This document shows, one piece after another, positions 21,503 through 64,000 of a DNA stretch of 64,000 nucleotides. The notes beneath the pieces are model-generated. The model ran no database searches. It was not told where the DNA came from and saw nothing but the letters and a program-made list of their open reading frames with translations. The DNA is taken from the NCBI RefSeq assembly GCF_963676685.1, contig NC_092352.1, forward strand, positions 1,922,001 to 1,986,000. The letters are read 5' to 3'. Positions within the stretch are counted from its first letter, which is position 1; the number at the start of each line of letters is the position of its first letter. The stretch comes from Mytilus edulis (Eukaryota). The translations under genes were made by a program, and so were the position numbers.

Positions 21503-22896
21503 TTAAGCATTATACCCAAATTATACAATGAAAAAAGTCCCATAAAGTCTAACTTGAGGAAAACTAAAAAATCATAATATTAAAATTCCTATGGATATTT
21601 GCATTGATATGGGAGGTAACCCTGCAAAAAATGGCAGAAATATCAATAAACACTTATAACTTTACCCCTTCTATTAAACATAATGTATTGATTCTTGATA
21701 ATTAAGCCTTATTTAGAGTACAACAAAGGACTCTAAATGTGTTTTCATATCTTTTACAATCTAGATTTCATAATTTTTTAGCTGACCATTTATTAGATTT
21801 TTCAGCATGTCAAGGTAAAGAATCTCAAATTAAATAAAATTAATTAAGAATATATTCTTCTTTTGGTGGTTTAAAATTTCTTTAAACAAGGTAGATGCTG
21901 AACTAATATAATTTACAGACATAAACAATACCAAATATTATATACTCTTATGCTCATGTAATGTACAAAACCGAAGTTATATGTGTATTTTTATTTTTTT
22001 ACCACATGTTATATGTCAAATACAAACTTATAACCTCATCAAAGTATCATATTTTACATGAATTTTAAGAAAATCAACCATAAACTTACAAAAGAAGACT
22101 CATTTTTGCGGAGTTATCTTCATTACCAATGTAAATTTCCATAAGAATTAAAAATGCAAAATTTGAGTTTTCCTCAAGTTAGATTTTATGGGACTTTTTT
22201 CTGTGTATATTTGGGACTTAATGCTATAGATTAGAACTGAAACATTTGCTTTTGCAGTTTGAGGTTCAGACTGGACTACAATTTTTTGAAAGGTATTTCA
22301 GGATTTTTTTACTTTATCTTGTATCACAACTGATTAGTTCAGGTGCTTTTTTTTTAATGAAGCCAGAAAATCTTATTGCAGAAAGGTAATTTACTTGAGA
22401 CTTTCTATTCAAACAACTGAAACTGCAAGCTACTGCTCACTGATGATACCCCCACCGCAAGACAATAATTTTAATAGTGTTCGGTAAACAGGAAGTTGTT
22501 GAGTGATGAATCTGAAAACGCATCACACGATAAAGCAGACTTGTATAAACCCTGAAACCAAATTTCACAAATCCTTGTATTGTAGTTCCTGAGAAAAATT
22601 TTCAACTTGACTATCATGTGTAAAAACATACAAGTGTTCAGTAAACAGGAAGTTGTTGAGTAATGAATCTGAAAATGCATCACACGATAAAGCAGACTTA
22701 TATAAACCCTGACACCAAATTTCACAAATCCTTGTATTATAGTTCCTGAGAAAAATTTTCAACTTGACTATCATGTGTAAAATCATACAAATATTCAGTA
22801 AACAGGAAGTTGTTGAGTAATGAATCTGAAAACACATCACACGGTATAGCAGACTTATATAAACCCTGACACCAAATTTCACAAACCCTTGTATTG

Positions 22897-23737
22897 TATT
22901 CAGGTATTTCACATCCAATTTTTTATGGTAATATTCTTTATAAAGCACAAAGGTGTCAGTATTCACCTAAGAAACTTACAAAACCTTTGAATAGACTTAT
23001 TAAGAAGGGATATAATTACGATACTGTTGTCAAGTCATTAAAGATTGCATATTTTGGCGTTAATATTGAGTCACTGATAAGGTCTTTGCATCGGAACTAA
23101 ACACATTTATTCTAAAAACAGTTGTTGGCATGACACGGGTTATGTTCTTCTCATATATGTTATGATGGTATGATACTAAACCCCTAACGGGAAGGATTGT
23201 GCCTGATGTTCATATGATGAAATCATAATCTTTCAGTCAGTTTAGTTGAAGTCTGGAGCTGGCATGTCAGTTAACTGCTAGTAGTCTGTTGTTATTTATG
23301 TATTATTGTCATTTTGTTTATTTTCTTTGGTTACATCTTCTGACATCAGACTCGGATTTCTCTTGAACTGAATTTTAATGTGCGTATTGTTATGCGTTTA
23401 CTTTACTACATTGGTTAGAGGTATAGGGGGAGGGTTGAGATCTCACAAACATGTTTAACCCCGCCGCATTTTTGCGCCTGTCCCAAGTCAGGAGCCTCTG
23501 GCCTTTGTTAGTCTTGTATTATTTTAATTTTAGTTTCTTGTGTACAATTTGGAAATTAGTATGGTGTTCATTATCACTGGACTAGTATATATTTGTTTAG
23601 GGGCCAGCTGAAGGACGCCTCCGGGTGCGGGTATTTCTCGCTACATTGAAGACCTGTTGGTGACCCTCTGCTGTTGTTTTTTATTTGGGCGGGTTGTTGT
23701 CTCTTTGACATATTCCTCATTTCCATTCTCAATTTTA
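22897..23737 (+). mobile_element. 3' fragment of a Penelope-like (Naiad-type) retroelement: ORF C-terminus and 3' UTR
   Basis: It encodes SGISHPIFYGNILYK...LNRLIKKGYNYD...HRN*. It is inserted inside a tandem unit (ccttgtattg|...|gttcctgag). Its last ~100 bp recur inverted at 26560-26663. Family assignment is from recall of similar peptides. Confidence 0.65.
23151..23217 (+). promoter_or_regulatory. Candidate eukaryotic SECIS element (type II)
   Basis: Helix I is tcatatatg/catatga and the core is ATGA (23162-23165)...TGAT (23204-23207). Helix II is ggtatgat/attgtgcc, with apical AAA (23178-23180) and a ccc/ggg mini-stem. It lies 50 nt downstream of the ORF stop. Confidence 0.75.
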
Positions 23738-23864
23738 GTTCCTGAGAAAAATGTGACGATATTTTTCAACTTTGCTATAATGTGTAAAATCATACAAGTG
23801 TTCGGTAAACATGAAGTTGATGAGTGATGAATCTGAAAACCCATCACACAGTATAGCAGACTTA

Positions 23865-25300: not shown

Positions 25301-25489
25301 CTTCCCATGTCCAAATACAGACTCTTTGGCATATCTTTCAAGACACTCCTGGCAAAACAGGTGCCCCTCATAACACTGAATCATCATCTCAAATGCCACT
25401 TCACCATAGCAACAACCACACTCTATCAACTGACCACTTTCCTCATACTCATGTTCGTTAACACTGACTGCCATTATATGATCCTGTTC
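25301..25489 (-). CDS. RNF216: RNF216-like exon encoding the start of RING1 of the RBR module
   Basis: It encodes EQDHIMAVSVNEHEYEESGQLIECGCCYGEVAFEMMIQCYEGHLFCQECLERYAKESVFGHGK, matching the recalled RNF216 pattern GQLIEC.CCYGE...HLFC.ECL.RYA.E.VFG.GK. Boundaries ttatag|GAA...AAG|gtatgt. The nine exons total 3201 nt in frame. Confidence 0.9.
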
Positions 25490-25872: not shown

Positions 25873-26816
25873 CATACCTGTCAACTGATAGGTGTGACCC
25901 GAGATTTTCACAATTCTGAGGGATCACCTGTAACTCAGGAATTACCAAAATGACCCGTTTTTACCTGGATTTCATAGCCTTGTTGATTTCATAAGTGATT
26001 TTCCTTTAAAAAACGGGCAAATTCGTAATTTTTCCATGAACAGGAAGTTCAGATAGCTGTGTAAACTATCAAATTATGTGATCCATTAGTACATGGCTTC
26101 AAATGACAGCTTTGGTGTCAAACACACTGTTTTAAAATTATCACTAATTACCTTAGCTTTAGGTTGTAAATAAATTTCACTGTTGTTTTACAAACATTTT
26201 TCAACTTGAGTTACTTCCCCTTTTTTGTCACCATTCAAAATTGTTCCTTATATTTACGCTTTTTGGGGTAAAAAAAGATCTAAAACAAATAGACTTTATA
26301 TACATATTGAAATATAACTTTTCATTATTTTTATACCTTAATTTAATTATAAAAGAAAAATTGAAAATATTTTTTTTCATCTGTACTTTCTTTAACTGTT
26401 TATCTTTATTTTGCTATAGTCTAATTACAATCAACAATCAATTTATCTTAATATTGATAACTGAGGCTGAAACATATCAGATGAAGTACACTGTAGGAAT
26501 ATCTTTTAAAAGTGCAATGGTATAATAATTGATAAAATTTTAAATTACTTAACCAAGTGATAAAATTGAGAATGGAAATGGGGAATGTGTCAAAGAGACA
26601 ACAACCCGACCAAATAAAAAACAACAGCAGAGGGTCACCAACAGGTCTTCAATGCAGCGAGAACATGTTTTGGAAACTTTGATTTAAATTATAAAAAAAA
26701 TGTCCCCTAATTGCTGAAATTCAGCTCGAAAAAGTTTGTACGCGTTATGACCTGAGATTCCATTCTTCAACGCAGGTCATGACCTGCATTTTCATTGTCA
26801 CAGGTTGACAGGTATG
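25873..26816. mobile_element. Non-autonomous hAT-like TIR element
   Basis: 13-bp TIR catacctgtcaac / gttgacaggtatg. The flanks match only in part (tatacaag vs tataattc). Confidence 0.55.
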
Positions 26817-33223: not shown

Positions 33224-33840
33224 CTGTAAGTAAAATTACATGCCTTTAATGTGGAAACAATTTATTTTTACTGCATACAGTTCGACAATGGTACTTTTTA
33301 AGGAACATTGTGAATTATTCAATAAAAATTTTGCTACACAAGACTGGTGTTTTAAAATTTTTAGAGCATTTCCAGAATACATTGATGAGACTGAGATTCA
33401 TTTCTTGGAAAATGTTGATTTTCCAGAATCTATCATTGTGATCATAGGATGATATTTATTTTTTTAAACTGTACTTGTGGTTTTTCCAGAATCTTCTTTA
33501 GTATCTGTAGGTTGAGGTTTATTCCTAAAAAAAATTTAAGACATTTTTGATTTTCTAGAACTTACCTTTGGTACCTGAGGTTGAGGTTTTTTTTCCAGGT
33601 AGCATTCCATTTAGAAAATTATATTAAATTAGACATCAAAACGTCAAATCATCTTCTATTCCTGGCGTTCTAATACTATGAAGGCTTTAAATTAATCTTC
33701 ACCCACCCCAAAGAGAAATCTATTGCTCACTAACTTTTATATTTATAGAAAAATCCACAGGCGCAAAAATGAGAAACTACACACCTAAATGTGGAGCGCT
33801 ACCTTAGACCTTAGGACACTGGAGATTTTCTAAAAATTAC

Positions 33841-34005
33841 CTTTGGTACTTGAGGTTGAGGCTTATTTTCAGACTTTTTAGGATATTGTGGATTTTCCAG
33901 TATTAGCATACAGGCATTATTGATAATCATCTGCCAGTTATGATCTTGTAATCGGTCATACAACTGGTCAACATAAGTCGGGTCAATATCTGGAAACATG
34001 TTGGT
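33841..34005 (-). CDS. RNF216: RNF216-like exon (TNMFPDIDPTYV...ILENPQYPK)
   Basis: Boundaries ttgtag|ACC...AAG|gtaatt; 165 nt. FPD.DP and ENP.YPK resemble RNF216 N-terminal conserved blocks. Confidence 0.8.
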
Positions 34006-43621: not shown

Positions 43622-46387
43622 TTACGACGTGAGGAACATATCCGATATCATCTGTGAAATGGTTATTCCATAACGGTCAACCAACTCGTGATGGCGTCCG
43701 TAAAATTTACGAAGGGATGATTTCAACTTCACCATTTGGAACTCTTGATTTAATAGCTTCCGTGTGAGCAGTAACCCTCTATCAAGAAAATCATGATAGG
43801 AAATGCAAGCACGGGAATATCGTATCAATTGAGAGATATATACCCCGTATGCAGGTGCTGCTGGAATGTTGCTACTTAGAAATGGAAAGTTCACAATAGG
43901 AAAGCTGAAATCATCTCTTTTGTCGTAAAGTTTTGTCTTCAACCGACCCTCATTGTCAATTTCTAGATGTAAGTCAAGATATGAAGCTGACTTAACTGTA
44001 TCTGTAGTATCCTTTATCTCCAATTCGATGGGATAGATGCGTTCCACATAGTCACCAAATTTTGAATTGTTTAGTGAAAGAACGTCATCTATATAGCGGA
44101 AAGTAGAGTTAAAGGATATTGCTAACTTCTTATCTTTCTTCCTAAGAAGTTCCTGCATGAAGTCAGCCTCATAATAATAAAGAAACAAGTCAGCAAGTAG
44201 AGGGGCACAGTTTGTTCCCATTGGTATGCCGACAGTCTGTTGAAAAACACGTCCTCCGAACGTAACAAATATGTTGTCAATCAAGAAATCAAGCATCTTG
44301 ATAATATCGGTTTCAGAGAATTTTTTGTTTGAATCAGAGTGATTCTTTACAAAGTAGGATTTATCCCTCCCTAAGACAAGATACTTGTATCTACGTTGGC
44401 CATTCTTTTTTATGAAGCAAAGTAATACCAACTCTTTTAATTTGTCTTTAAGTTTGGAATGTGGAATACTTGTGTAAAGAGTAGAGAAGTCAAATGTTTT
44501 AATACTGTTACAAGATGAAAGAGAGTTAGATTGTATGTACTCTAAAAGATCTTTGGAATTTTTAAGTATCCACATCTGATTCACGCCACCTCTAGAATAG
44601 GCAGTTTCACAATAACTTTGAAGCCCGTCTTTGATTGCTGATAAAATGGATGTTAATAATTTAGAAAGAGGTTTTGTGGAGCACTTGGAAGACCCAGCAA
44701 TATACCGCTGTTTGTAAGGACACTTATGTAGTTTAGGTATCCAATACAGTGATGGAAGATCCAGTTCTTCATCTTTGGTTGAAATACCAAAGGAACAAAG
44801 AACAGACCTATGATTATCCAGGATTTCCTCTTTGGTAAGTGTCGTGAGGGTATATGTTGAGTTTCCAAGTGAATTGTCTATACCTAATTCGTTTATCAAG
44901 CAATTAATGTAATGACTTTTACAGACAAAAACGATGTTATTTGGGGCTTTGTCTGCGGGGACAACAACATATTTATCATGGAGGTCGGATAGGTGTTTAG
45001 CAACATTTGGGTCTTTAAAAATTGACGTAGCATGGGCATTGATGGACCCATTCAGTTTCTTAATTCTGATTTGTATTAAGGACCTCACTGCCTTTATCCA
45101 TTCGGATAGAGTGTCTACGTCTTCCTTCTCGCGCTTAGCCCATTGCCTGGCATAATCCTCGACTGAATCCATCAAAATTTTAAAGTTGTATTTCCAATTG
45201 ATGGATTTAGGCTCACGATATTTCGGACCTTTCGATAACACGTTTCGTAGAGAAGTGTTATTAACAATGTTAAGGTCACCGGTAATAACGTGGCCAGCGG
45301 GATTATATGTGAATTGGGAACTAGCACAAGTGCAATCAGGAGGTTTAGACTTGAAGTCGTCAATATCGAGATCCTGCAAAACGCGTTTGTAATTGAAAAT
45401 TTTAGTTGCAATAGGTTTGGTATAGGTATAAGAAATTATTGGTACAGACTGGTCTTTAAAATAAGGAGGTATTTTCGATTGAACTAATTTATGATGAAGG
45501 ATATTGCCAAGGTTGACGCCATCGAGACCTTTGTTGGCAAAGGAAAGATTTAGAAAATATCTTTTCTCTTTTTCATCTTTTCCAATGCGAACTGGCTTGA
45601 AAAGTCTGTGACTTGCAATATCCGAAATTATAGCTTGAAGTTTGTATTGGTTTGAATGAGGGTTTGTAACAGTGGATTCCAAACATAAATTAAACAGAGA
45701 ATGAAGTTTTGAAAGGGGTAATGAATAAAGTTTCGTGCGAATGTGATGAATACCTAACGGTTTTTGTATGAATGGCAGCAAGTCATTAATAGAGACATCA
45801 TGCAGAGAGGGTGATGTATAATGACGATGACCATGACTGCGTCTACGTCGAGGAGTCGAGTTGAAAATATTCATCACATTCACCGAGTTACACGAAGGAC
45901 TAGATAGAATGCCTATACCATCAATTTTGTCATTGCAGCCATACGGTGTTGCAGTTCCCAATTGTCTAATCCAGTAGTCTTCTTTTTGTCTACGGAGAGT
46001 CGTTGAAAGATTAGGATTGTTAGAGCTATGGTATATCTTTTCGATAATGCGAACTGTCATAGAAACGATGGAATGATCGGGCTGATTGAAATGCTGGTAT
46101 AGAATGTCGTTAGCATTGAGGTTAATGTCTGATCTATGACCGCACATCCGTTTGTTTAGCCTTCCTTTCGTTTCACCGACGTATACCAATCCGCAAAGGT
46201 TGCACTCTAATCCGTAGACGACATTTATCGATTTACAATTCAGATCATCGTAACTTCTGGTAAAATATGACTTCTTGGTCAAATTGCTAGTGAATTCAGC
46301 ATCTGTAATTAAAATAGCACAAGTTTTGCAGCCTTTGGTCTCACATTTTGAAATGCGACAGTGTTGTACTGTGTCATCAAAAACCAA
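43622..46387 (-). CDS. Penelope-like element of the Naiad type: N-terminal GIY-YIG endonuclease + RT, intact ORF
   Basis: CETKGCKTC and VVYGLECNLCGLVYVGET...RMCGH...HFN...YWIRQLGT..PYGCN lie upstream of the RT motifs LYWIPKLHK, TFDFSTLYT, GIPMGTNCAP and FRYIDD. There are no stops in 921 codons. Confidence 0.93.
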   Translation of the reverse strand: MVFDDTVQHCRISKCETKGCKTCAILITDAEFTSNLTKKSYFTRSYDDLNCKSINVVYGLECNLCGLVYVGETKGRLNKRMCGHRSDINLNANDILYQHFNQPDHSIVSMTVRIIEKIYHSSNNPNLSTTLRRQKEDYWIRQLGTATPYGCNDKIDGIGILSSPSCNSVNVMNIFNSTPRRRRSHGHRHYTSPSLHDVSINDLLPFIQKPLGIHHIRTKLYSLPLSKLHSLFNLCLESTVTNPHSNQYKLQAIISDIASHRLFKPVRIGKDEKEKRYFLNLSFANKGLDGVNLGNILHHKLVQSKIPPYFKDQSVPIISYTYTKPIATKIFNYKRVLQDLDIDDFKSKPPDCTCASSQFTYNPAGHVITGDLNIVNNTSLRNVLSKGPKYREPKSINWKYNFKILMDSVEDYARQWAKREKEDVDTLSEWIKAVRSLIQIRIKKLNGSINAHATSIFKDPNVAKHLSDLHDKYVVVPADKAPNNIVFVCKSHYINCLINELGIDNSLGNSTYTLTTLTKEEILDNHRSVLCSFGISTKDEELDLPSLYWIPKLHKCPYKQRYIAGSSKCSTKPLSKLLTSILSAIKDGLQSYCETAYSRGGVNQMWILKNSKDLLEYIQSNSLSSCNSIKTFDFSTLYTSIPHSKLKDKLKELVLLCFIKKNGQRRYKYLVLGRDKSYFVKNHSDSNKKFSETDIIKMLDFLIDNIFVTFGGRVFQQTVGIPMGTNCAPLLADLFLYYYEADFMQELLRKKDKKLAISFNSTFRYIDDVLSLNNSKFGDYVERIYPIELEIKDTTDTVKSASYLDLHLEIDNEGRLKTKLYDKRDDFSFPIVNFPFLSSNIPAAPAYGVYISQLIRYSRACISYHDFLDRGLLLTRKLLNQEFQMVKLKSSLRKFYGRHHELVDRYGITISQMISDMFLTS

Positions 46388-46884
46388 AATGTCTTTAAGG
46401 AGAACTGAACATGGCTGTATATGTGTAATGTTGCTGTTTTCACTAGGACTAAGATGACAGAAACCAATCCATGCCGTACAGAGAGACGTAGTAGTTGGCG
46501 TACCCGCGTTAACATGCCTCCAAAACCATTGTCTATTATGGGGAGTGTCATGCCGATTAACGTCCGAGGGCTGTATCCTAGGCTGTTGGGTGATACGACC
46601 TTCATTTTACTGCCTCACGGCTTTGGTCCTGATAACGCTTCCTGTCATCTTTAGAACTACGTCCACGATTCATCTGCCAGTACTCCTTCATCGAGGCTAG
46701 CGGGCTGCCAAGCTGACCAAACTGGCCCTGAAAGCAGCCGTTAGTGAAGAAAAACATCAAAATAGTAAACAAAGAAAAATCAACTCACCAAAACCAAGAT
46801 GGCGGCCTACATATTGCGACCTCCACTACTTGTTCCTGACCCATGGCATCAAATCATTTAAAGCTCACCAAACGCCTTCGGGCA

Positions 46885-47725: not shown

Positions 47726-48634
47726 TTAAATTGCTTAATCATTTAGAGAGCCACAGTCTATTAAAGAGATTTTTTACGGTAAGTGCTTTTATGAAAGCCT
47801 TGAAAAGATACACAACACTGCTTGTCGACAGTAGTTACTCTGCAGTATAGCTTTACATATAGAAAGCTTGATGGTCTTGCACAGACCTTACCACTAATTG
47901 TAAGATGACATTGTTATATAAAGAACAAAATGTCTATCTTCAGTCTTGCTGGTCTTTCACAGACCTATCATATTTTGTCACTTTTATGTGAGTTTTAACT
48001 TATTTACATTTGAATACTTTTATCTATATAATATTGTTGTTATTTGCTAATTTGTAATTTATCATAATAAACTATGAAAACTTGCTAGTGTTAAGTTCTA
48101 CAATGCCACTTATGAAGGATCAGAGACTCAGGATTCCGATACCTACTCTTTACACGGTCTGGGGTAAAATATGTAAAGTTCACACAGAAAATACGCAACG
48201 TCAAAACCCCTCCGGTTACAAAACATTCAATCATTACTATCTATAATAAAGACTTTAACAGCTGTCTCTGTTAAGGATGTTAGCTTCCACTATAAAATTA
48301 CCTCTGCTTCTGAATATTATCATCCAAATAATATGATCGACATTATCTTTATCTTAAAACTCATCTAGTCATGCAGTTAAAACGACGGTTTAAGATATGG
48401 TATAAACTCTGAATAATTTCAGTAATGCCACAGGATTTCTTTACTTAATCCAATTAATCTTAATAAAAAGTTGTAACTGGCTTCTAAAAAGATGAAAGGA
48501 CTGAAAGGTAAAATCGACTACTAGCGCACCTCAGTAGCCCTTGGATTAACCCCAGTCTCGCCCCATATGTATATCATCTGTGAAAAATAGTCTTCTACAC
48601 GGCTTTATATGACGCAAGGACGTATATATATATA

Positions 48635-48978
48635 TAGTTGATATACGTATTCAACATTTTAAAGAACATTTTACTATTAACAATAACCACAAAAAAACCT
48701 ATTTCTCGTATCAAACATAAACTAAAAGAACTAGCCAAGAAATTTGTTTTTGTCCCGGCCGATAAAGCTGCTAATAATATTATAATTGTTTGACGTAAAT
48801 TTTACATTGAGGTTCTGAAAAAAGAAATCACCAATTCACCAACATTCCAACTGACTCCATTTTCAGAAAACGACATCTGTAACAAAAAAGAAATCACCAA
48901 TTCACCAACATTCCAACTGACTCCATTTTCAGAAAACGACATCTGTAACAAACATAAACTTTTAGCTACCGCTTTACA
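48635..48978 (+). pseudogene. Second Naiad family, RT N-terminal part, with an in-frame TGA (48791-48793) and an in-frame 66-bp duplication
   Basis: It translates IVDIRIQHFKEH...KFVFVPADKAANNIIIV*RKFYIEVLKKEI, homologous to YVVVPADKAPNNIVFVCKSHYINCLINEL in the intact Naiad. It begins in a (TA)n tract. Confidence 0.85.
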
Positions 48979-49111
48979 GAACATATTTATTTCCAATTAA
49001 GGGCCCACAAGGGGCATACAGAGCATACATGAATAAGGCAAAAGAATATTGATTTGCATAGATACATAGATACAAACAATTTTTTACATACAGTTACAAT
49101 ACAATTACTAA

Positions 49112-49711
49112 TATTCTGCCTCAGTGCATACTAGTATAACCATAAGCCACAGTAATGTATATCATTTATTTCGAAAACCATGAAATAACAAGTTCTACAT
49201 ATGTGTGCTGTGATGTTGGTAAAAAGCTACAAAAAACAAAAACAAAACCTTAGCTAACTCATCATACTCATGACTACAAAAATCATAAAACTAACAGTTC
49301 AAATCTATGTATCAAAATGAATTTTCAATCAAATCATTCAAAAATTATAGCACCAAATGGCTTTCCATACTTTTATAAAAACAGTGACAAAATAAACAAT
49401 CATCATATTTCACTTTTGGCTGATATACACATATACAAAATTTATCTTGATGTGGAAACATATTAACTTTCATCATACAATCATTAAAAACTATGAATTA
49501 TAAACTTATATTGTGAGTTGGCGTAGTTTACGATACTTTTAAATGCCTGTGACCACGTTCATGCTTTCAATTTAGGAAACAAAAAAGTAAGGGGGACAGT
49601 AACGAACTTCAAAGTACAAAAATCTAGCAATAAAAAATAGTCCGGGAAAACTTATGAAAAATCGATAGAATTTCTGTTAAACAATAAAAAATCAACACTG
49701 GTAACAGTACA
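49112..49711 (-). repeat. BEL/Pao 3' LTR
   Basis: It matches 56137-56736 with only one difference noticed (cttatattg vs cttacattg). Minus-strand termini are TGTA...AATA. Confidence 0.95.
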
Positions 49712-49917
49712 CTCCCCGTCTATTATCATTCCCATGATAATATTTTACAACAAATTTATGCAAATATACCAAATGTAAAAATAAGTCACAATTTTGACTA
49801 TTACGAAAAATCAATGCTATCGAAGAACATTCCTTCAGCATAAAAAACACACTAAAAATACAAACAACAGTTCACTTAAACCTTTTATAAATTGTTCAAT
49901 ATTGTCAATATTCACAA

Positions 49918-52900
49918 TCAGTCTACCAATAAAACCATCTCACTAATCGGTCTAGTATATGTAACAGCTTTTCCTTCCTTGTAAATGCGGAGGCGAGCCT
50001 TGCGTATTTTTCCATCATCGCTTTTGAAAACTTCCTCCACAATGCCTAGTGGCCACTCTCCTCGGTAAATAGATTTGTCTCTCATAAGAATTACATCACC
50101 AACTTTGATATCGTCTTTGTCAATGTGCCATTTACGTCTCTGTTGCAAACATTGTAAATAATCTGACCTCCAATGCTTCCAGAATATATCTGATAGAACT
50201 TGCACATGTTTCCATTGTGCACGATACATATCCTTGAGATTGTATGTGTCCGTTATCACAGGTAAGTAGTCTTGTTTTCCAGTTAAGAGCATTGATGGAC
50301 TTAGAATCAAAGGCATTTCCGGATCTGATGATATCTGTGCAATGGGTCTTGCGTTAATAATAGCGGTCACTTCAGCTAAGAATGTTGTTAAACTTTCATG
50401 AGTCAAACTTTTACTACTAGAAGTTAAGATAACAGCGTCTAATATTCTTCGTGTGACACCTATCATCCTTTCCCACACTCCTCCCATGTGGGAAGAGTGG
50501 GGAGGGTTAAATTTCCATACTGAACCAGATTCACATAGAAAGTTTTTAACTGTCAAATCTTCAACATTTATAGCTTCAATATTTGAATCATCTGTGGCAC
50601 CTATGAAATTTGTCCCACGGTCAGATCGATACACTTTGGCTTGTCCGCGTAATGACTGGAACCTACGAAGTGAATTTATAAAACAGGAACTGCTTAATGA
50701 TTCTATCACTTCTATATGGACTGCTCTCGTAGTCATACATGTAAATAAAATAGCCCACCTTTTACTATTTGCTGAACCTCCACGTGTCTTACGAGTTAAT
50801 ACTTGCCAAGGTCCGAAGGTATCCAAACCTACAAATGTGAACGGAGGCCCTGGTGTTAGTCTATCAGAAGGCAAGTCCGCCATTTTTTGTTCCTGGAACT
50901 TTCCTCGAAGTTTCCTGCATATTACACACTTTTGTATAAATGAAGAAATTAATCGTTTAGCTCCAATTAGCCAGTATCCTGCACTCCTTAACGCACCTTC
51001 AGTTAAATGTCTACCCTGATGTTTCACTGAATTGTGATAGCGGTCTATAAGAAGCTTACTAATGTAACTATTTTTCGGAATGATAATTGGGTTAATTTCT
51101 CCTGTCGGAAGCCAAGACTTTGCCTTTTCCAAACGTCCTCCTACACGAATCAAACCTTGTGAATCCAAAAATGGCGAAAGAGAGATTAAAGATGATTGTT
51201 TTGAAATGTTTGTGCCTCTAGCCAAACATTCTATCTCTTGCGAATATACTTCCTTCTGACATTCCTTCAAGATAAATAATTCCGCTTTTTGGTAACTATC
51301 AACTGACATGACATTTTGACAAAAATGCCAACCTTGGCACGACTTATCCTTTAAACTGAATGACTGAGCCACATGTTGCAAAAATGATATAGCTTTCACA
51401 AGCCGTCTCCAACTAGAGAATTTTTTAAAACGCCCCACTATTGGCGCAAGCGCATCTATTGACGTTTTCGATGCACTTATCTCTTTTCTAATCTCTTTAT
51501 CATTATCTGGACTAACTAACGGATATAATATTTTGACATCACATTGAGCTTCTTCGTCAGAGTTCTTCATCCACTTCGGCCCAAGAAGCCATGGATTGTT
51601 TTCCATATCAACAGATATTGAGTAACGTGTACCGCAATCTGATGGGTTTAAATGTGTTGGGACAAACTGCCACTGATTTGATGACGATACACTCAGAATG
51701 CGTTCAATTCTGTTTGACACGTAGGTGTGAAAACGTCGGGTCTGATTAGTGATATATCCTAACACAATTTTGCTATCAGAATAATACTTGATAGAGTCCA
51801 ACGGAACATCTAAATTTTCAGATATTATTTTTCCAATTTCGGTTGCCAAGACAGCCCCACATAACTCTAATCTTGGTATCGTGTTTCCGCTAAGAGGTGC
51901 TAGTTTCGATTTTCCCATAATAAATCCTACGGTACTGGTCCCATATGTGTCGATAGCTCTTAAATATGCCGAAGCCGCAACTGCCTTCTCTGAAGCGTCT
52001 GAAAATACATGTACTTCTAAGTTGTCCATAACACTGATTGACATAGGTATATACATACGTGGTATACTAAGTTCTCGAAGTGACAAAACAGAGATCCTCC
52101 ATTCATTCCATTTCTCTTGAAAACTTTGTGATAAACATTCATCCCAATCAGTACCCGGTGGGGATGCATCTCGCAACAAAATCTTTCCGCTAATTGTGAG
52201 TGGTGACAAGAATCCAATCGGATCAAAAATACTATTCAATGACGAAAGAATACCTCTACGGGTGCAGGGTTTATCATCTTGTAATGGGGTAAATATAAAG
52301 CTATCGGTGTTTAAGTCCCAAGCGAGGCCAAGGCTGTGTTGTACCGGAAAATAGTCTTCACACAAGTTTAAATTCTTGAGATCCTTTCCAATATCATCGG
52401 CAGGGAAAGCCTTCATTACGTCGCTACTATTTGATGTAATCTTGTGTAACCTAATGTTACCTTCTGTTTTTAGCGCCATCTGTGTTCTTGTTATAAGATC
52501 AATTACTTGTTCACTTTCAGGCAAGGAAATGAGCCCATCGTCTACGTAAAAATCCCTGTTAACGAAAGTCTTAACATCTGAGCCGAACGTTTCATTAGAG
52601 TTTTCAACTGTCTTACGTAATCCGTACGTTGCCACTGCAGGAGAAGCGCTATTGCCAAAAACATTGACACACATCCGATGTTCTATAAGCGGATTATCTG
52701 GGTTATTGTCCTTGTACCAAAAGAACCTCAAAAAGTTTCTATCTTCTTCTCTCACGTAGAATTGATAAAACATTTGTTCTATATCAGCAGTGGCCGCAAA
52801 CTGGTCACTGCGAAAACGCAACAAAATACCAAGTAGGTTGTTAGTGAGATCTGGTCCTGACATCATAACGCTATTGAGAGATACTCCTTCGAAAGATGCT

Positions 52901-53925
52901 GAGGAATCAAATACGCCTCTTATCTGGTTAGGCTTGTTCTGGTGGTAAACGCCAAAAAGGGGGAGATACCAACACTCCTCATCTGTGATTATGGGAGCTA
53001 CCTCCGCTGCTCCGCTAACTAATACTTTTTGCATAAATTCTACAAAATGAGTCTTTTTTGTAAAATTTTGTTGGAAAGATTTATCGAGTATTTGAGCCCT
53101 TTTCCATGCTTGACTCCTATTGTTCGGCAATCGTTGTCTATTTGGTCTAAAAGGGAGGGGTGCAGTCCAGTGCCCATTTGAATCTTTCTTAAATTCAGAA
53201 TCCATGAGATTAAGGAACAAGCGGTCTTGGACTGATGTGCCAATCTTGTCGTCATCTTTGGTTTTAATAAACAATGGGTCATTGTTACATCTTTGTGAAT
53301 GAACATTATCTCTGATATGAGCCAATTCAGTGTTTTCCTTTACATACAAAGTGTTAATACAAGGTTCAAATATAGTTCCTCTACCATTGTTCATTACATT
53401 AGTCTTATTGACATTGACAAAATTTGGTTTGTGTACTTTGCCTAAGCAAACATCGCCTATAATTACCCAACCGAAAAAGAGCTCCTGGGCAAATGGCGTG
53501 CCCTTCGGTCCTGTCAACTGTCTAAACACGTGGTGCGCTTCTGGGACATCTCTTCCAATCAAAAGTTGAATGTCTATATTTGGATTCAAATCTAACATTT
53601 GATGAGCTATCTCCCGTAAATGGGGATAGGATTTAGCAATATCCGGAGTCGGAATTTCTGATTTTTCGTCTGGGATTGCACTGCACTCTATTACTGAATG
53701 TATTTCAAGTTCTCCATTACCAGACAATGACTCAACTATCAGACTTTCTGCACATCTACCATTCATGATAGTGCGTCCAGCACAAGACGACATAGTATAC
53801 TGAATGGCCGATGTATTTATACCTAATTGATCGAACAGCTCAGTCTTAGCAAGAGTTCTGTTACTTTGGTCGTCCAGTATAGCGTACACATTAACGGCTT
53901 TATCTGGGAAGTTCTTCGGGTACAC
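49918..53925 (-). CDS. BEL/Pao pol (protease, RT, RNase H, integrase)
   Basis: Motifs: AILDDQS protease, ADIEQMF, FGNSASP, FYVDD, VFSDAS, IPRLELCGA, H..KHQG...CVIC, GLDTFGP, SDRGTNF and GGVWER. Confidence 0.95.
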   Translation of the reverse strand: MYPKNFPDKAVNVYAILDDQSNRTLAKTELFDQLGINTSAIQYTMSSCAGRTIMNGRCAESLIVESLSGNGELEIHSVIECSAIPDEKSEIPTPDIAKSYPHLREIAHQMLDLNPNIDIQLLIGRDVPEAHHVFRQLTGPKGTPFAQELFFGWVIIGDVCLGKVHKPNFVNVNKTNVMNNGRGTIFEPCINTLYVKENTELAHIRDNVHSQRCNNDPLFIKTKDDDKIGTSVQDRLFLNLMDSEFKKDSNGHWTAPLPFRPNRQRLPNNRSQAWKRAQILDKSFQQNFTKKTHFVEFMQKVLVSGAAEVAPIITDEECWYLPLFGVYHQNKPNQIRGVFDSSASFEGVSLNSVMMSGPDLTNNLLGILLRFRSDQFAATADIEQMFYQFYVREEDRNFLRFFWYKDNNPDNPLIEHRMCVNVFGNSASPAVATYGLRKTVENSNETFGSDVKTFVNRDFYVDDGLISLPESEQVIDLITRTQMALKTEGNIRLHKITSNSSDVMKAFPADDIGKDLKNLNLCEDYFPVQHSLGLAWDLNTDSFIFTPLQDDKPCTRRGILSSLNSIFDPIGFLSPLTISGKILLRDASPPGTDWDECLSQSFQEKWNEWRISVLSLRELSIPRMYIPMSISVMDNLEVHVFSDASEKAVAASAYLRAIDTYGTSTVGFIMGKSKLAPLSGNTIPRLELCGAVLATEIGKIISENLDVPLDSIKYYSDSKIVLGYITNQTRRFHTYVSNRIERILSVSSSNQWQFVPTHLNPSDCGTRYSISVDMENNPWLLGPKWMKNSDEEAQCDVKILYPLVSPDNDKEIRKEISASKTSIDALAPIVGRFKKFSSWRRLVKAISFLQHVAQSFSLKDKSCQGWHFCQNVMSVDSYQKAELFILKECQKEVYSQEIECLARGTNISKQSSLISLSPFLDSQGLIRVGGRLEKAKSWLPTGEINPIIIPKNSYISKLLIDRYHNSVKHQGRHLTEGALRSAGYWLIGAKRLISSFIQKCVICRKLRGKFQEQKMADLPSDRLTPGPPFTFVGLDTFGPWQVLTRKTRGGSANSKRWAILFTCMTTRAVHIEVIESLSSSCFINSLRRFQSLRGQAKVYRSDRGTNFIGATDDSNIEAINVEDLTVKNFLCESGSVWKFNPPHSSHMGGVWERMIGVTRRILDAVILTSSSKSLTHESLTTFLAEVTAIINARPIAQISSDPEMPLILSPSMLLTGKQDYLPVITDTYNLKDMYRAQWKHVQVLSDIFWKHWRSDYLQCLQQRRKWHIDKDDIKVGDVILMRDKSIYRGEWPLGIVEEVFKSDDGKIRKARLRIYKEGKAVTYTRPISEMVLLVD

Positions 53926-56066
53926 ACGGACCTGAACGGTTTTTCCACATGATTTACCACTAAATCCACATAAAAACGTGCACTTGGATGATCATTAGCA
54001 TTTTGCGTTGTATCAGATGATTTCTCTCCGCCGTCAGGACAACTAGATTTTGCAGTTACATGCATAGCGGTTATATGATAATTACTTCCACAATGATCGC
54101 ATTTTACAGTTACAGTGCAATTTCGTGACATATGAGTTGTCGAATGGCAGCATTTGAAACAAATATTATTGTCCTTCAGATACTTTCTGCGTTCTTCATA
54201 AGTCATTGCTTTAAAGGCTCGACAAGTATTCAAATGATGATTGGCTTTATGAATAGGACAACGTACTGTCTCTTTCTCTTCCTTCTGTTTAATATTAACA
54301 TCCGTTTTTCGGTTAAACACTGACGTTGCACCATGGTTAACTTTCCGTGTTTCATTTTTCCTAGAATACGACGTTTCAGTATTACTATAAATAAACGCGG
54401 GATCATTTTTGACAGCACTAACCTCTCTGATAAATTGCACCAAGTACGAAAAAGGTGGAAATGGTACGTTGTTCCTCAGTTTGTATTGCGATGCACGTGT
54501 TGTCCACTTCTCTTGTATATTATATGGTAATTTGTCCACAATTGGTAAAACACCAGAAGAAGAGTCGAAATATGACAATAAATTTGAAAATGTCTCATTC
54601 TCTTTCGAAGATTCTATTTGTGTGAGAATATCTAATAGCTCATAAAGTCGACTATGATCCTTGTTTGTTAACTTTGGAAACTTCTGTAGTTTTGTTTTAA
54701 TTGCAGCTTCTACCATCTCAGGTCTACCATAGCGTTCGTCAAGACGCTCCCATATACGACGAAGACCAGCATTTGGATTGTTCACATTTGACGCACGAAT
54801 ATTTTGCGAAAACTTTGAAGATTCACGGCCGAGCCATTTAACTAATAAGTCCATTTCTTCGAAAGCCGTAACTGAGAGTTCTTCAGTAATACTTTTAAAG
54901 GTAGCTTTCCATGAAGCATAAGTTTCGGGACAGTCATCGAAATTCTGAAATCTAGAAAGTAGTAAATCTTTCTTCAACAAAAACTTTGTCAAGTCAGACA
55001 CTACAGACTGATCATGATTTGGTGGCAGTGGTGGTTGAGTTAATTCAAAATCAGCTGCATAAGGATTTAATGTTTGTTTTTGCCGAATTTCTGGTTTAAT
55101 ATCTTCAACTATCGATCGATCCAAATCGTCGACTTGAAATTTTGGCAAATTCCTTGGCGTAGGAATTATGTTTAACTGGTTCCGAGGTGCCGGAATATGT
55201 GAACTAAATTTGTCTTGATTGTTCGGAATATCTTGCGGAACATTATTATTCTTGTCTTGAGATTTGAGTTGTTCCACTTCATTAAATTGTTCATTTACAT
55301 ACTTTTCTGTTAGTGTCATTTTCACTTTTTGTAAATACTCTTTGTCTTCTTGTAACGACAAGGATCTTCTATCGCTCTCGGCTTCTTCTAAAACTTTGAC
55401 CTCGACCTCTGCGACAGCGGCTTCTGTCTGTTGTTTAAGCAGTGCTAAATCTGCATCAACTTCAGCTTTTTCACGGTCCTTCAAAGCTTTAGACTGTGTT
55501 TCTAATTCACTTAATCTTGCTTTTTGCTTAATTAATTTTGTTTGTTGTTCCGCATATTGTAACTTTGTTCGTTGAACTTCAGCATTTACACGCTTCCTAG
55601 CCATAGCTGAACTCGAAATTGAGCCGCTTTTACCACTATTGTTTGAACGGACAGACTCTACAGGAACTACTGACATAGTTTCAGCTGCGGTTAATTTCAA
55701 TGTCTTAATTTGTTGTAATGTATTGTCAATGATTTCATTGCACTTTTTAAACTCAGTCTTAAAGGTGGGTAATGCGTCATTACTGTCTTCATTATTCTTG
55801 CGTGTCAAAAACTCAATATATTGATTTGAGTTTTCACAGTATTTTTCACGAGACTTCAAAATGTTTTTCTCTAGTTTGCGTAGAGGTTTCAGCTCCTTCG
55901 AGCACTCTGATAATTCTTCGAGTAAATTTTCTATAGTTTCCCACGAACCGTCAATTTGCTTAAGGTATTTTATCTTATGTGAATGATAAAGTTCTTTACC
56001 TTTCTCTGTCATTTTATGTTCATGTGTTACTGTTGTTTCAGGCGGAAGTGGTTGTGATTGAGCCAT
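53823..56066 (-). CDS. BEL/Pao gag (coiled coil, capsid-like region, three Cys/His knuckles)
   Basis: It has the knuckles CPIHKANHHLNTC, CFKCCHSTTHMSRNC and CDHCGSNYHITAMH. The frame shifts to pol near 53990. Confidence 0.9.
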   Translation of the reverse strand: MAQSQPLPPETTVTHEHKMTEKGKELYHSHKIKYLKQIDGSWETIENLLEELSECSKELKPLRKLEKNILKSREKYCENSNQYIEFLTRKNNEDSNDALPTFKTEFKKCNEIIDNTLQQIKTLKLTAAETMSVVPVESVRSNNSGKSGSISSSAMARKRVNAEVQRTKLQYAEQQTKLIKQKARLSELETQSKALKDREKAEVDADLALLKQQTEAAVAEVEVKVLEEAESDRRSLSLQEDKEYLQKVKMTLTEKYVNEQFNEVEQLKSQDKNNNVPQDIPNNQDKFSSHIPAPRNQLNIIPTPRNLPKFQVDDLDRSIVEDIKPEIRQKQTLNPYAADFELTQPPLPPNHDQSVVSDLTKFLLKKDLLLSRFQNFDDCPETYASWKATFKSITEELSVTAFEEMDLLVKWLGRESSKFSQNIRASNVNNPNAGLRRIWERLDERYGRPEMVEAAIKTKLQKFPKLTNKDHSRLYELLDILTQIESSKENETFSNLLSYFDSSSGVLPIVDKLPYNIQEKWTTRASQYKLRNNVPFPPFSYLVQFIREVSAVKNDPAFIYSNTETSYSRKNETRKVNHGATSVFNRKTDVNIKQKEEKETVRCPIHKANHHLNTCRAFKAMTYEERRKYLKDNNICFKCCHSTTHMSRNCTVTVKCDHCGSNYHITAMHVTAKSSCPDGGEKSSDTTQNANDHPSARFYVDLVVNHVEKPFRSVCTRRTSQIKPLMCTLYWTTKVTELLLRLSCSIN

Positions 56067-56136
56067 TTCATAAAATTGTTTGTAGGAACTACTGCATGTT
56101 ATTCTGTATCGAACTGTGTCTTTGCAATCTTTTTAC

Positions 56137-56736
56137 TATTCTGCCTCAGTGCATACTAGTATAACCATAAGCCACAGTAATGTATATCATTTATTTCGAA
56201 AACCATGAAATAACAAGTTCTACATATGTGTGCTGTGATGTTGGTAAAAAGCTACAAAAAACAAAAACAAAACCTTAGCTAACTCATCATACTCATGACT
56301 ACAAAAATCATAAAACTAACAGTTCAAATCTATGTATCAAAATGAATTTTCAATCAAATCATTCAAAAATTATAGCACCAAATGGCTTTCCATACTTTTA
56401 TAAAAACAGTGACAAAATAAACAATCATCATATTTCACTTTTGGCTGATATACACATATACAAAATTTATCTTGATGTGGAAACATATTAACTTTCATCA
56501 TACAATCATTAAAAACTATGAATTATAAACTTACATTGTGAGTTGGCGTAGTTTACGATACTTTTAAATGCCTGTGACCACGTTCATGCTTTCAATTTAG
56601 GAAACAAAAAAGTAAGGGGGACAGTAACGAACTTCAAAGTACAAAAATCTAGCAATAAAAAATAGTCCGGGAAAACTTATGAAAAATCGATAGAATTTCT
56701 GTTAAACAATAAAAAATCAACACTGGTAACAGTACA
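56137..56736 (-). repeat. BEL/Pao 5' LTR
   Basis: It is a direct repeat of 49112-49711. Confidence 0.95.
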
Positions 56737-63594: not shown

Positions 63595-63768
63595 GCTGAT
63601 TTGTGCGTCGTCTGCAGACGTCTGCAGACGAGGAGTTTGACTTTTTATGTGTAGAAGTAACGCCGAATTGTCACTGGTATTTATCTATATTGACATATTA
63701 ATGCTTATAAAAGGGTAAAACTCTCATTCTTTTCTTGGTCAGTCATCTAAAAGGGCAAAACCACGAGA

Positions 63769-64000
63769 AGAGCCAAATACAATGAAAGTCCCAACTATGT
63801 ACTGGCTTCCGAAGCTACACAAAACACCTTACAAATATAGATTTATTTCGTCTTCAAGCCATTGTTCCACTACTAAATTGTCTATTCTTCTTACTAGCAC
63901 ACTTGGTACAATTAAAAACCTGATAATAAATTGTTCAAATAAGGCCTTCGAAAATAGTGGAATTAATTACTTTTGGAGTGTCAAGAACTCGTTGGAAGTA
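63769..64000 (+). pseudogene. Continuation of the second Naiad RT after a 14.8-kb insertion (runs off the window)
   Basis: It translates EPNTMKVPTMYWLPKLHKTPYKYRFISSSSHCSTTKLS...INYFWSVKNSLEV, collinear with LPSLYWIPKLHKCPYKQRYIAGSSKCSTKPLS...VNQMWILKNSKDL. Confidence 0.88.

Follow-up and report, generated by a model that had tools for sequence, protein, structure and literature searches.

The locus raises the question of whether a short hairpin in the tail of a broken mobile element is a genuine SECIS and, if so, which protein it would serve. The window (the whole 64-kb stretch of mussel DNA that was analyzed) had been given a sequence-only reading, in which a hairpin 50 nt past an ORF stop was said to carry all SECIS hallmarks, to lie in a Naiad-type 3′-UTR antisense to an RNF216-like gene, and to support Sec recoding if the fragment belonged to the same TGA-containing family as two other pieces of the window (beginning at 48635 and 63769). 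Truncated copies were expected to scatter SECIS elements through the genome, and an unconserved core, or a parent ORF with no in-frame TGA, was named as a reason to abandon the idea. The reading favored here, held with a probability of about 0.9, is that the hairpin is the SECIS of a Naiad family that would insert Sec at four UGA codons to make a full endonuclease-reverse transcriptase (EN-RT), and that the truncated, intronic copy in the window is itself most likely inert.

Anatomy of the hairpin

Eukaryotic SECIS elements have a helix II of about 10-11 positions and an unpaired AA 11-12 nt from the core, values that are also those of the Rfam consensus. Helix I, the core, helix II, the apical AAA and the mini-stem were all located in the window, at the distance from the stop that had been claimed (Table 1). 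The AUGAU and UGAU strands supply the non-Watson-Crick RUGAN...NGAN core, and the length of helix II and the AA spacing are those of known elements. Nine of the ten helix II positions are paired, three of them as G-U, and one is an A.G mismatch. The Rfam model SECIS_1 (RF00031) was matched over its whole length by 23152-23216 (+) with 32.3 bits (E = 0.017 for 64 kb and 4227 families), which was the only SECIS among five Rfam matches in the whole window. This is below the Rfam gathering score of 35, a score threshold rather than a biological feature; a sister copy in which the A.G mismatch is closed reached 41.4 bits, above the cut-off, and the elements of relatives scored 38.8-42.8 bits. Intact copies of the family carry exactly the same hairpin sequence, and in the SECIS of subfamily B the first position of helix II is an A.C mismatch. 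Compared with eukaryotic SECIS elements at large (RF00031), the hairpin is alike in its AUGA/UGA core, 10-position helix II, AAA at 11 nt, mini-stem and 3′-UTR site, whereas it is unusual in riding on a mobile element present in thousands of copies and in scoring just below the cut-off. The folding energy lay within chance (z = -1.47; 16 of 200 shuffles were equally good), and was dropped as proof of a SECIS because it was not significant.

Table 1. Coordinates of the hairpin, of Naiad sequences and of host exons (window positions, except in the last row)
Feature	Position	Strand	Basis or remark
SECIS, type II-shaped	23151-23217	+	Rfam RF00031 match, fold, covariation
ORF stop TAA	23098-23100	+	sequence; spacer to hairpin 50 nt
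SECIS helix I, 6 bp	23151-23156/23212-23217	+	sequence, fold
SECIS core, AUGAU opposite UGAU	23162-23166/23204-23207	+	sequence
SECIS helix II, 10 positions	23167-23176/23194-23203	+	sequence, fold
Apical AAA	23178-23180	+	offset 11 nt from SECIS core
Mini-stem CCC/GGG, 3 bp	23182-23184/23189-23191	+	type II shape
Young Sec-type Naiad (Penelope-like retroelement), subfamily A; 5′-truncated, 3′ 839 bp present	22899-23737	+	99.0-99.3% to full-length L032/L031
Last 66 codons of element ORF and TAA	22900-23100	+	translation; aa 937-1002 of full-length ORF
Remainder of element 3′-UTR	23218-23737	+	last ~280 bp are pseudo-LTR in L031
Internal fragment, same family, 69-bp internal duplication	48634-48978	+	95-96% to L032
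TGA at DKA+8 (site 522) in that fragment	48791-48793	+	sequence
Internal RT fragment, same family, cut at window end	63763-64000	+	97% to L032
103-bp 3′ tip, same family, without SECIS	26561-26663	-	98% to L032
Cys-only Naiad of another family	43622-46606	-	38% aa to Sec family; Cys at all four TGA sites
RING1 exon of host RNF216 gene	25301-25489	-	PDB RNF216 match E 1.5e-15; 100% to proteins named Mytilus RNF216
Nine RNF216 exons	39430-25298	-	exon map
Second Sec-type Naiad family (62% aa)	L104:473-3484; L216; L203-L208		five TGAs

The parent element and its UGA codons

The Naiad identity proposed for the 3′-UTR was borne out by the near-identity of the 839-bp segment to full-length copies elsewhere in the genome (L031 and L032), which also supply the missing link between the two internal pieces and this 3′ end: all three segments match one full-length copy at 95-99%. 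Both full-length copies have a 1002-codon frame from an ATG if TGA is read through, with in-frame TGAs at codons 55, 86, 97, and 522 and an open frame of 480 codons after the last. The frame was intact in these two of the seven long copies fetched, and another 20 stretches, selected for the length of their open frames, brought the intact frames to eight in subfamily A and six in subfamily B (L031 and L032 included), every one of which carries all four TGAs. A 361-bp query from the hairpin segment gave 615 genome candidates, and the 40 that were scored were 99-100% identical. Among 30 fetched loci of the segment, the 5′ ends were variable and most shared a common 3′ end; the limits of the window copy were the same against 29 other copies. 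The element body is ~3.9 kb, with a 282-bp pseudo-LTR in L031 and tandems of ~4.03 kb elsewhere in the family, in agreement with the 5′ truncation, partial tandems, pseudo-LTRs and 3.4-4.4-kb body of Naiads.

By inspection, the protein joins an N-terminal GIY-YIG EN (IIY..GIQYVG at aa ~92-108) to a C-terminal RT with YLDD in the same ORF. The motif list in section 6 of Craig et al. 2021 (PMC8557442) comprises a CX2-5CxxC finger, a KR-rich block, CxC, GxKF/Y and DKA; the mussel protein has C50-x4-U55-xx-C58, a KR-rich stretch at aa ~217-235, C385-N-C387, GPKY and PADKA, respectively. Homologs of the protein carry PF01541 and PF00078, and a Pfam scan of the read-through protein returned no domain at E 0.01. 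No Rfam hammerhead ribozyme match was obtained in L031-L033, L101 and L102, in line with the lack of a canonical hammerhead in Naiads. The C-terminal motif of the family was not found in the supplement text of PMC8557442, where long sequences are incomplete and absence is not implied.

The parent ORF is thus anything but free of in-frame TGAs, and all four align with Cys in the Cys-only Naiad of the window, a near-complete element with an unbroken 994-codon frame that serves as an internal control and in which neither Rfam nor a strict scan for core, helix and AA detected a SECIS. Through the full-length copies, the hairpin is assigned to the 3′-UTR that follows an ORF whose UGAs occupy Cys-homologous sites. 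Among EN-region matches, 134 of the 150 that were scored had exactly three TGAs and no other stop (hand count). In alignments from 57 loci of the same genome, picked for their likeness to the query, TGA occupied codons 55, 86, 97 and 522 in 56/58, 57/58, 54/58 and 60/60 cases. Subfamilies A and B, which share 93.5% protein identity at a dS of 0.27, have kept all four; dN/dS between them is 0.12 over codons 55-521 and again 0.12 over codons 522-1002, and the equality of the values between and after the TGAs indicates, from codon comparison, that the whole ORF is under purifying selection straight through them. The fragment belongs to a TGA-containing family with TGAs at four conserved Cys sites, which was the proviso for reading the hairpin as support for Sec recoding, and Sec is the probable residue at each. 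By the motif assignment of PMC8557442, three of the four predicted Sec residues would be predicted metal ligands. Five genome matches to tRNA-Sec exceeded the Rfam cut-off, with anticodon TCA in the one inspected; the loci lie at C7:74.8-75.4 Mb and C1:49.15 Mb (L218-L220), four of them with equal scores within 0.6 Mb.

In eukaryotes, SBP2 binds the kink-turn core of the SECIS, and eEFSec with Sec-tRNA decodes UGA. An intact element RNA would accordingly recruit host SBP2 through the kink-turn core of its SECIS, and eEFSec and Sec-tRNA would decode the UGAs, placing Sec at aa 55, 86, 97, and 522. The full EN-RT protein would then begin reverse transcription at the 3′ end of that RNA and frequently break off before completion, which would leave thousands of SECIS-bearing tails like that in the window. 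If codon 55 were not read through, translation would yield no more than a 54-aa peptide, and mobility would therefore probably depend on host selenium. Sec incorporation is deduced here from established Sec biology and comparative evidence, and it likewise has the standing of a prediction for the Naiads in the available part of PMC8557442.

Covariation, and probable exchange of Sec and Cys, in relatives

Relatives were gathered from a metagenome scan (80 loci) and a genome scan (22 loci), and the closest 42 were examined. In L103 (80% aa identity), five of ten helix II pairs are changed on both sides and the apical loop is unchanged. When L103, subfamily B and the window were compared, sliding the partner strand by 1-3 columns lowered pairing from 92% to 36-51%, in a comparison of three sequences for which 7 of 500 shuffles scored as high. 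In a wider set, 22 of 25 regions gave a SECIS candidate and the 19 with at least seven pairs were kept; 92.6% of their helix II cells were paired, against 58.9% after arm swap (0/5000). Selection of the best register and omission of six regions bias the 92.6% upward. The strict scan, which had hit rates of 0.17% (in shuffled 3′-UTRs) and 0.06% on shuffled sequence, returned a SECIS downstream of 14 of the 21 ORFs that carry TGAs. Rfam matches in L113, L120 and L123 raised this to 17, and neither method found one after L106, L115, L126 or L128. None was found in eight outgroup ORFs (four with the EN region covered, three with site 522 only, one with neither), and the strict scan found one in one of two in-clade frames that have Cys at site 522 and an uncovered EN. 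Far from being unconserved, the AUGA/GA core and the AA spacing are kept in relatives while the helix sequence varies. Profile match and covariation together confirm, at the level of sequence, that the window hairpin is a real SECIS.

A reading of the hairpin as an accidental SECIS mimic, thrown up by an A+T-rich UTR, could appeal to its sub-threshold Rfam score and weak folding z-score. It is hard to reconcile with the covariation, the 0.17% shuffle rate, the recurrence of a SECIS just past the stop in most TGA-bearing relatives and its absence from the outgroups, and these comparative data already largely refute it; its probability is very small.

A second proposal accepts the fold and denies it a role in Sec insertion: the UGAs might be read by a near-cognate Cys or Trp tRNA, or genuinely terminate translation, with RT synthesis starting at an internal AUG; the hairpin might then be a relic or serve some other function, for example to package the RNA together with its RT. 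In favor of this are the 480-codon frame past the last TGA, plain Cys at site 522 in the close relatives L103 and P0002-P0004, and Trp there in some database proteins. However, purifying selection is the same on the EN and linker between the TGAs as on the RT, the TGAs coincide with Cys positions across families that are only 45-62% alike and have few other stops, the AUGA/GA core and AA spacing outlast changes of helix sequence, and the hairpin is missing from Cys-only relatives; the Trp residues, moreover, may be TGA translated as Trp by gene callers. This proposal is improbable, although less so than a chance fold, and Sec insertion at the four UGAs remains the preferred reading. Trp stands at Sec sites in database proteins P0079, P0087, P0092, P0104, P0108 and P0121.

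In an RT tree of 44 rows, every one of the 20 rows whose site 522 is TGA belongs to one 32-row group (support 100/98), which also contains eight Cys and four Trp rows, whereas the 12 rows outside it all have Cys. Seven changes of the site-522 label are required, so that site 522 switches often between states; the tree is midpoint-rooted and built without the published clam and spider sequences, and these counts do not separate gain from loss. Close relatives with Cys at DKA+8 are L103, L107, P0002-P0004 and P0017; L103 keeps a perfect SECIS and L107 has a TGA at CxC, suggesting that single sites switch while the system stays. The metagenome relative L122 falls in the same clade as the family of the window. 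It shares 29 nt around the stop with the line of Fig. S3B that is given, by order, for Naiad_Mmer (PMC8557442), which ties the clam lineage to the 32-row group. The pattern fits one Sec origin among the sampled aquatic families, as judged from the tree, and says nothing on spiders. In L181 (2378-2382), and also in L186 and L114, the UGA stop of the ORF doubles as the UGA of the SECIS AUGA core. The Naiad sequences L181-L202 lie within records labelled as bacterial genomes, and most likely represent animal DNA carried into those assemblies rather than bacterial elements.

Spread, published relatives and the intronic copy

The expectation that truncated copies scatter SECIS elements through the genome was borne out: exact 24-base SECIS half-sites numbered 4,294 for subfamily A and 1,760 for subfamily B genome-wide. 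With 219 for the second family (L104 type), the genome holds at least 6,273 in the two families, and reversed control half-sites gave 0 for each. The second family has the same four TGAs and a fifth at the first Cys of CxC, also in a copy from this genome, and its SECIS, without a mini-stem, is type I-shaped and ~140 nt past the stop. The CxC site is TGA in 9 of 23 covering rows, and is not among the Sec sites named in section 8 of PMC8557442. An Rfam SECIS search of the genome, in which 130 of ~47,000 candidates were scored and which is no census, gave one SECIS match, a copy of the window's family. When the same genome was searched with the diverged relative P0043, 136 matches at 81-82% were found, as for the known family, and no closer family; a search for the Naiad_Mmer-like L122 family was empty, which carries little weight.

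Craig et al. 2021 (PMC8557442; compared here as far as the available part of the paper allows) reported Sec-type Naiads from two clams and two spiders. The SECIS elements there are of type I, and 5′-truncated copies were proposed as possible donors of SECIS elements to genes. Like the clam Naiad_Mmer and Naiad_Scon, the mussel family encodes its N-terminal GIY-YIG EN and its C-terminal RT in a single ORF and has a SECIS directly past the stop; the UGA sites common to all are the Cys that precedes GIY-YIG, the first CCHH Cys and DKA+8. It differs in its host, in a fourth UGA at the second Cys of CX2-5CxxC, which is Cys in both clam families, and in a type II-shaped SECIS 50 nt past the stop, whereas the published ones are type I at 1-21 bp. 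The spider Naiad_Sdum and Naiad_Smim also have UGA before GIY-YIG and at DKA+8, and Naiad_Sdum has it at the second Cys of CX2-5CxxC as well; unlike the window's family (Cys50 and Sec97), the spider Naiads have UGA at the first finger Cys and none at CCHH. The two mussel families of that paper carry no selenoprotein comment in the part available, and Naiad_Mgal has Cys at the EN sites. A literature search, which covered few subscription papers, found no other report on Sec-type or mussel Naiads.

The mechanism and the SECIS-donation idea are therefore already in print (PMC8557442). New here are the mussel Sec-Naiad families with their half-sites in one genome, the further Sec site at CxC, and, on the present alignments, one well-supported clade with sites switching between Sec and Cys. 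Selenoprotein-encoding transposons are thereby extended to mussels, with many intact, near-identical copies. Copy number, intact young families and extra Sec sites bring two questions of PMC8557442 within reach of a test in a single animal, namely SECIS donation to host genes by truncated copies and a single versus a repeated gain of Sec. For annotation, TGA-bearing Naiad ORFs have the appearance of pseudogenes, and Naiad copies will swamp any search for SECIS elements in mussels. A broader conjecture, unlikely when taken as a whole, is that Sec use is an old trait of one large aquatic-invertebrate Naiad clade rather than several independent inventions, with sites switching between Sec and Cys while the SECIS stays, and that in mussels more than 6,000 SECIS elements have been sown, the activity of jumping genes is gated by selenium supply and capture of a Naiad SECIS has turned one or more host genes into new selenoprotein genes.

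Three raw RNA runs of a related mussel covered the whole element, which was also present in metatranscriptome contigs (X17). With strand set by host exons (first mates lie opposite the RNA), a sense excess of about five-fold over the 5′ ORF was seen in one of the three runs, and was weak or absent in the other two. The 3′-UTR was covered on both strands, with many loose read ends at the 3′ end of the element, as expected from copies inside other transcripts, and a small number of reads run from the 3′ end into the 5′ start, a pattern expected of tandems. Such reads are not attributable to this copy among thousands, and are uninformative on Sec recoding.

The antisense position to an RNF216-like gene was upheld by exon match, splice joints and exon map alike. 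Five upstream RNF216 introns were confirmed by CT..AC splice joints, and a motif scan found no downstream exons inside the window; these lie outside it, the next ~4.3 kb to the left. Placed by the RING1 exon and that next exon, the copy is antisense within an RNF216 intron of ~29.6 kb. The copy lacks both a promoter and a UGA-bearing frame and points the wrong way, so that in all likelihood it is inert. This particular copy could act on the host if it supplied its SECIS to a host transcript, for which its identity to the hairpin of intact copies and the abundance of family 3′ ends in RNA, on both strands, might be cited. Yet it is intronic and antisense to RNF216, the reverse strand showed no SECIS fold in a folding check, no plus-strand host gene was seen at the copy, and reads over it are unassignable; a host role is extremely unlikely, and an inert copy of a Sec-type Naiad is preferred.

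The copy sits inside an array of ~157-bp tandem repeats (22476-22898 and 23732-23864), and no clear target-site duplication was seen there. An LTR retrotransposon at 49109-56736, whose 603-bp repeats agree at 99.7% and whose two long frames overlap, is presumably BEL/Pao-like, given its domain order. To the left of the window, other RNF216 introns contain multi-kb tandem arrays (L209:4-3514 / L210:6609-9967 and L212:1-2262 / L213:1880-10000), with a 46-bp unit (~150 copies) and a 42-bp unit (~247 copies), in which the unit consists of the 3′ end of the upstream exon and its GT splice donor. A single duplicate of such an exon end and donor may lie within the window, at 33536-33595 versus 33811-33870.
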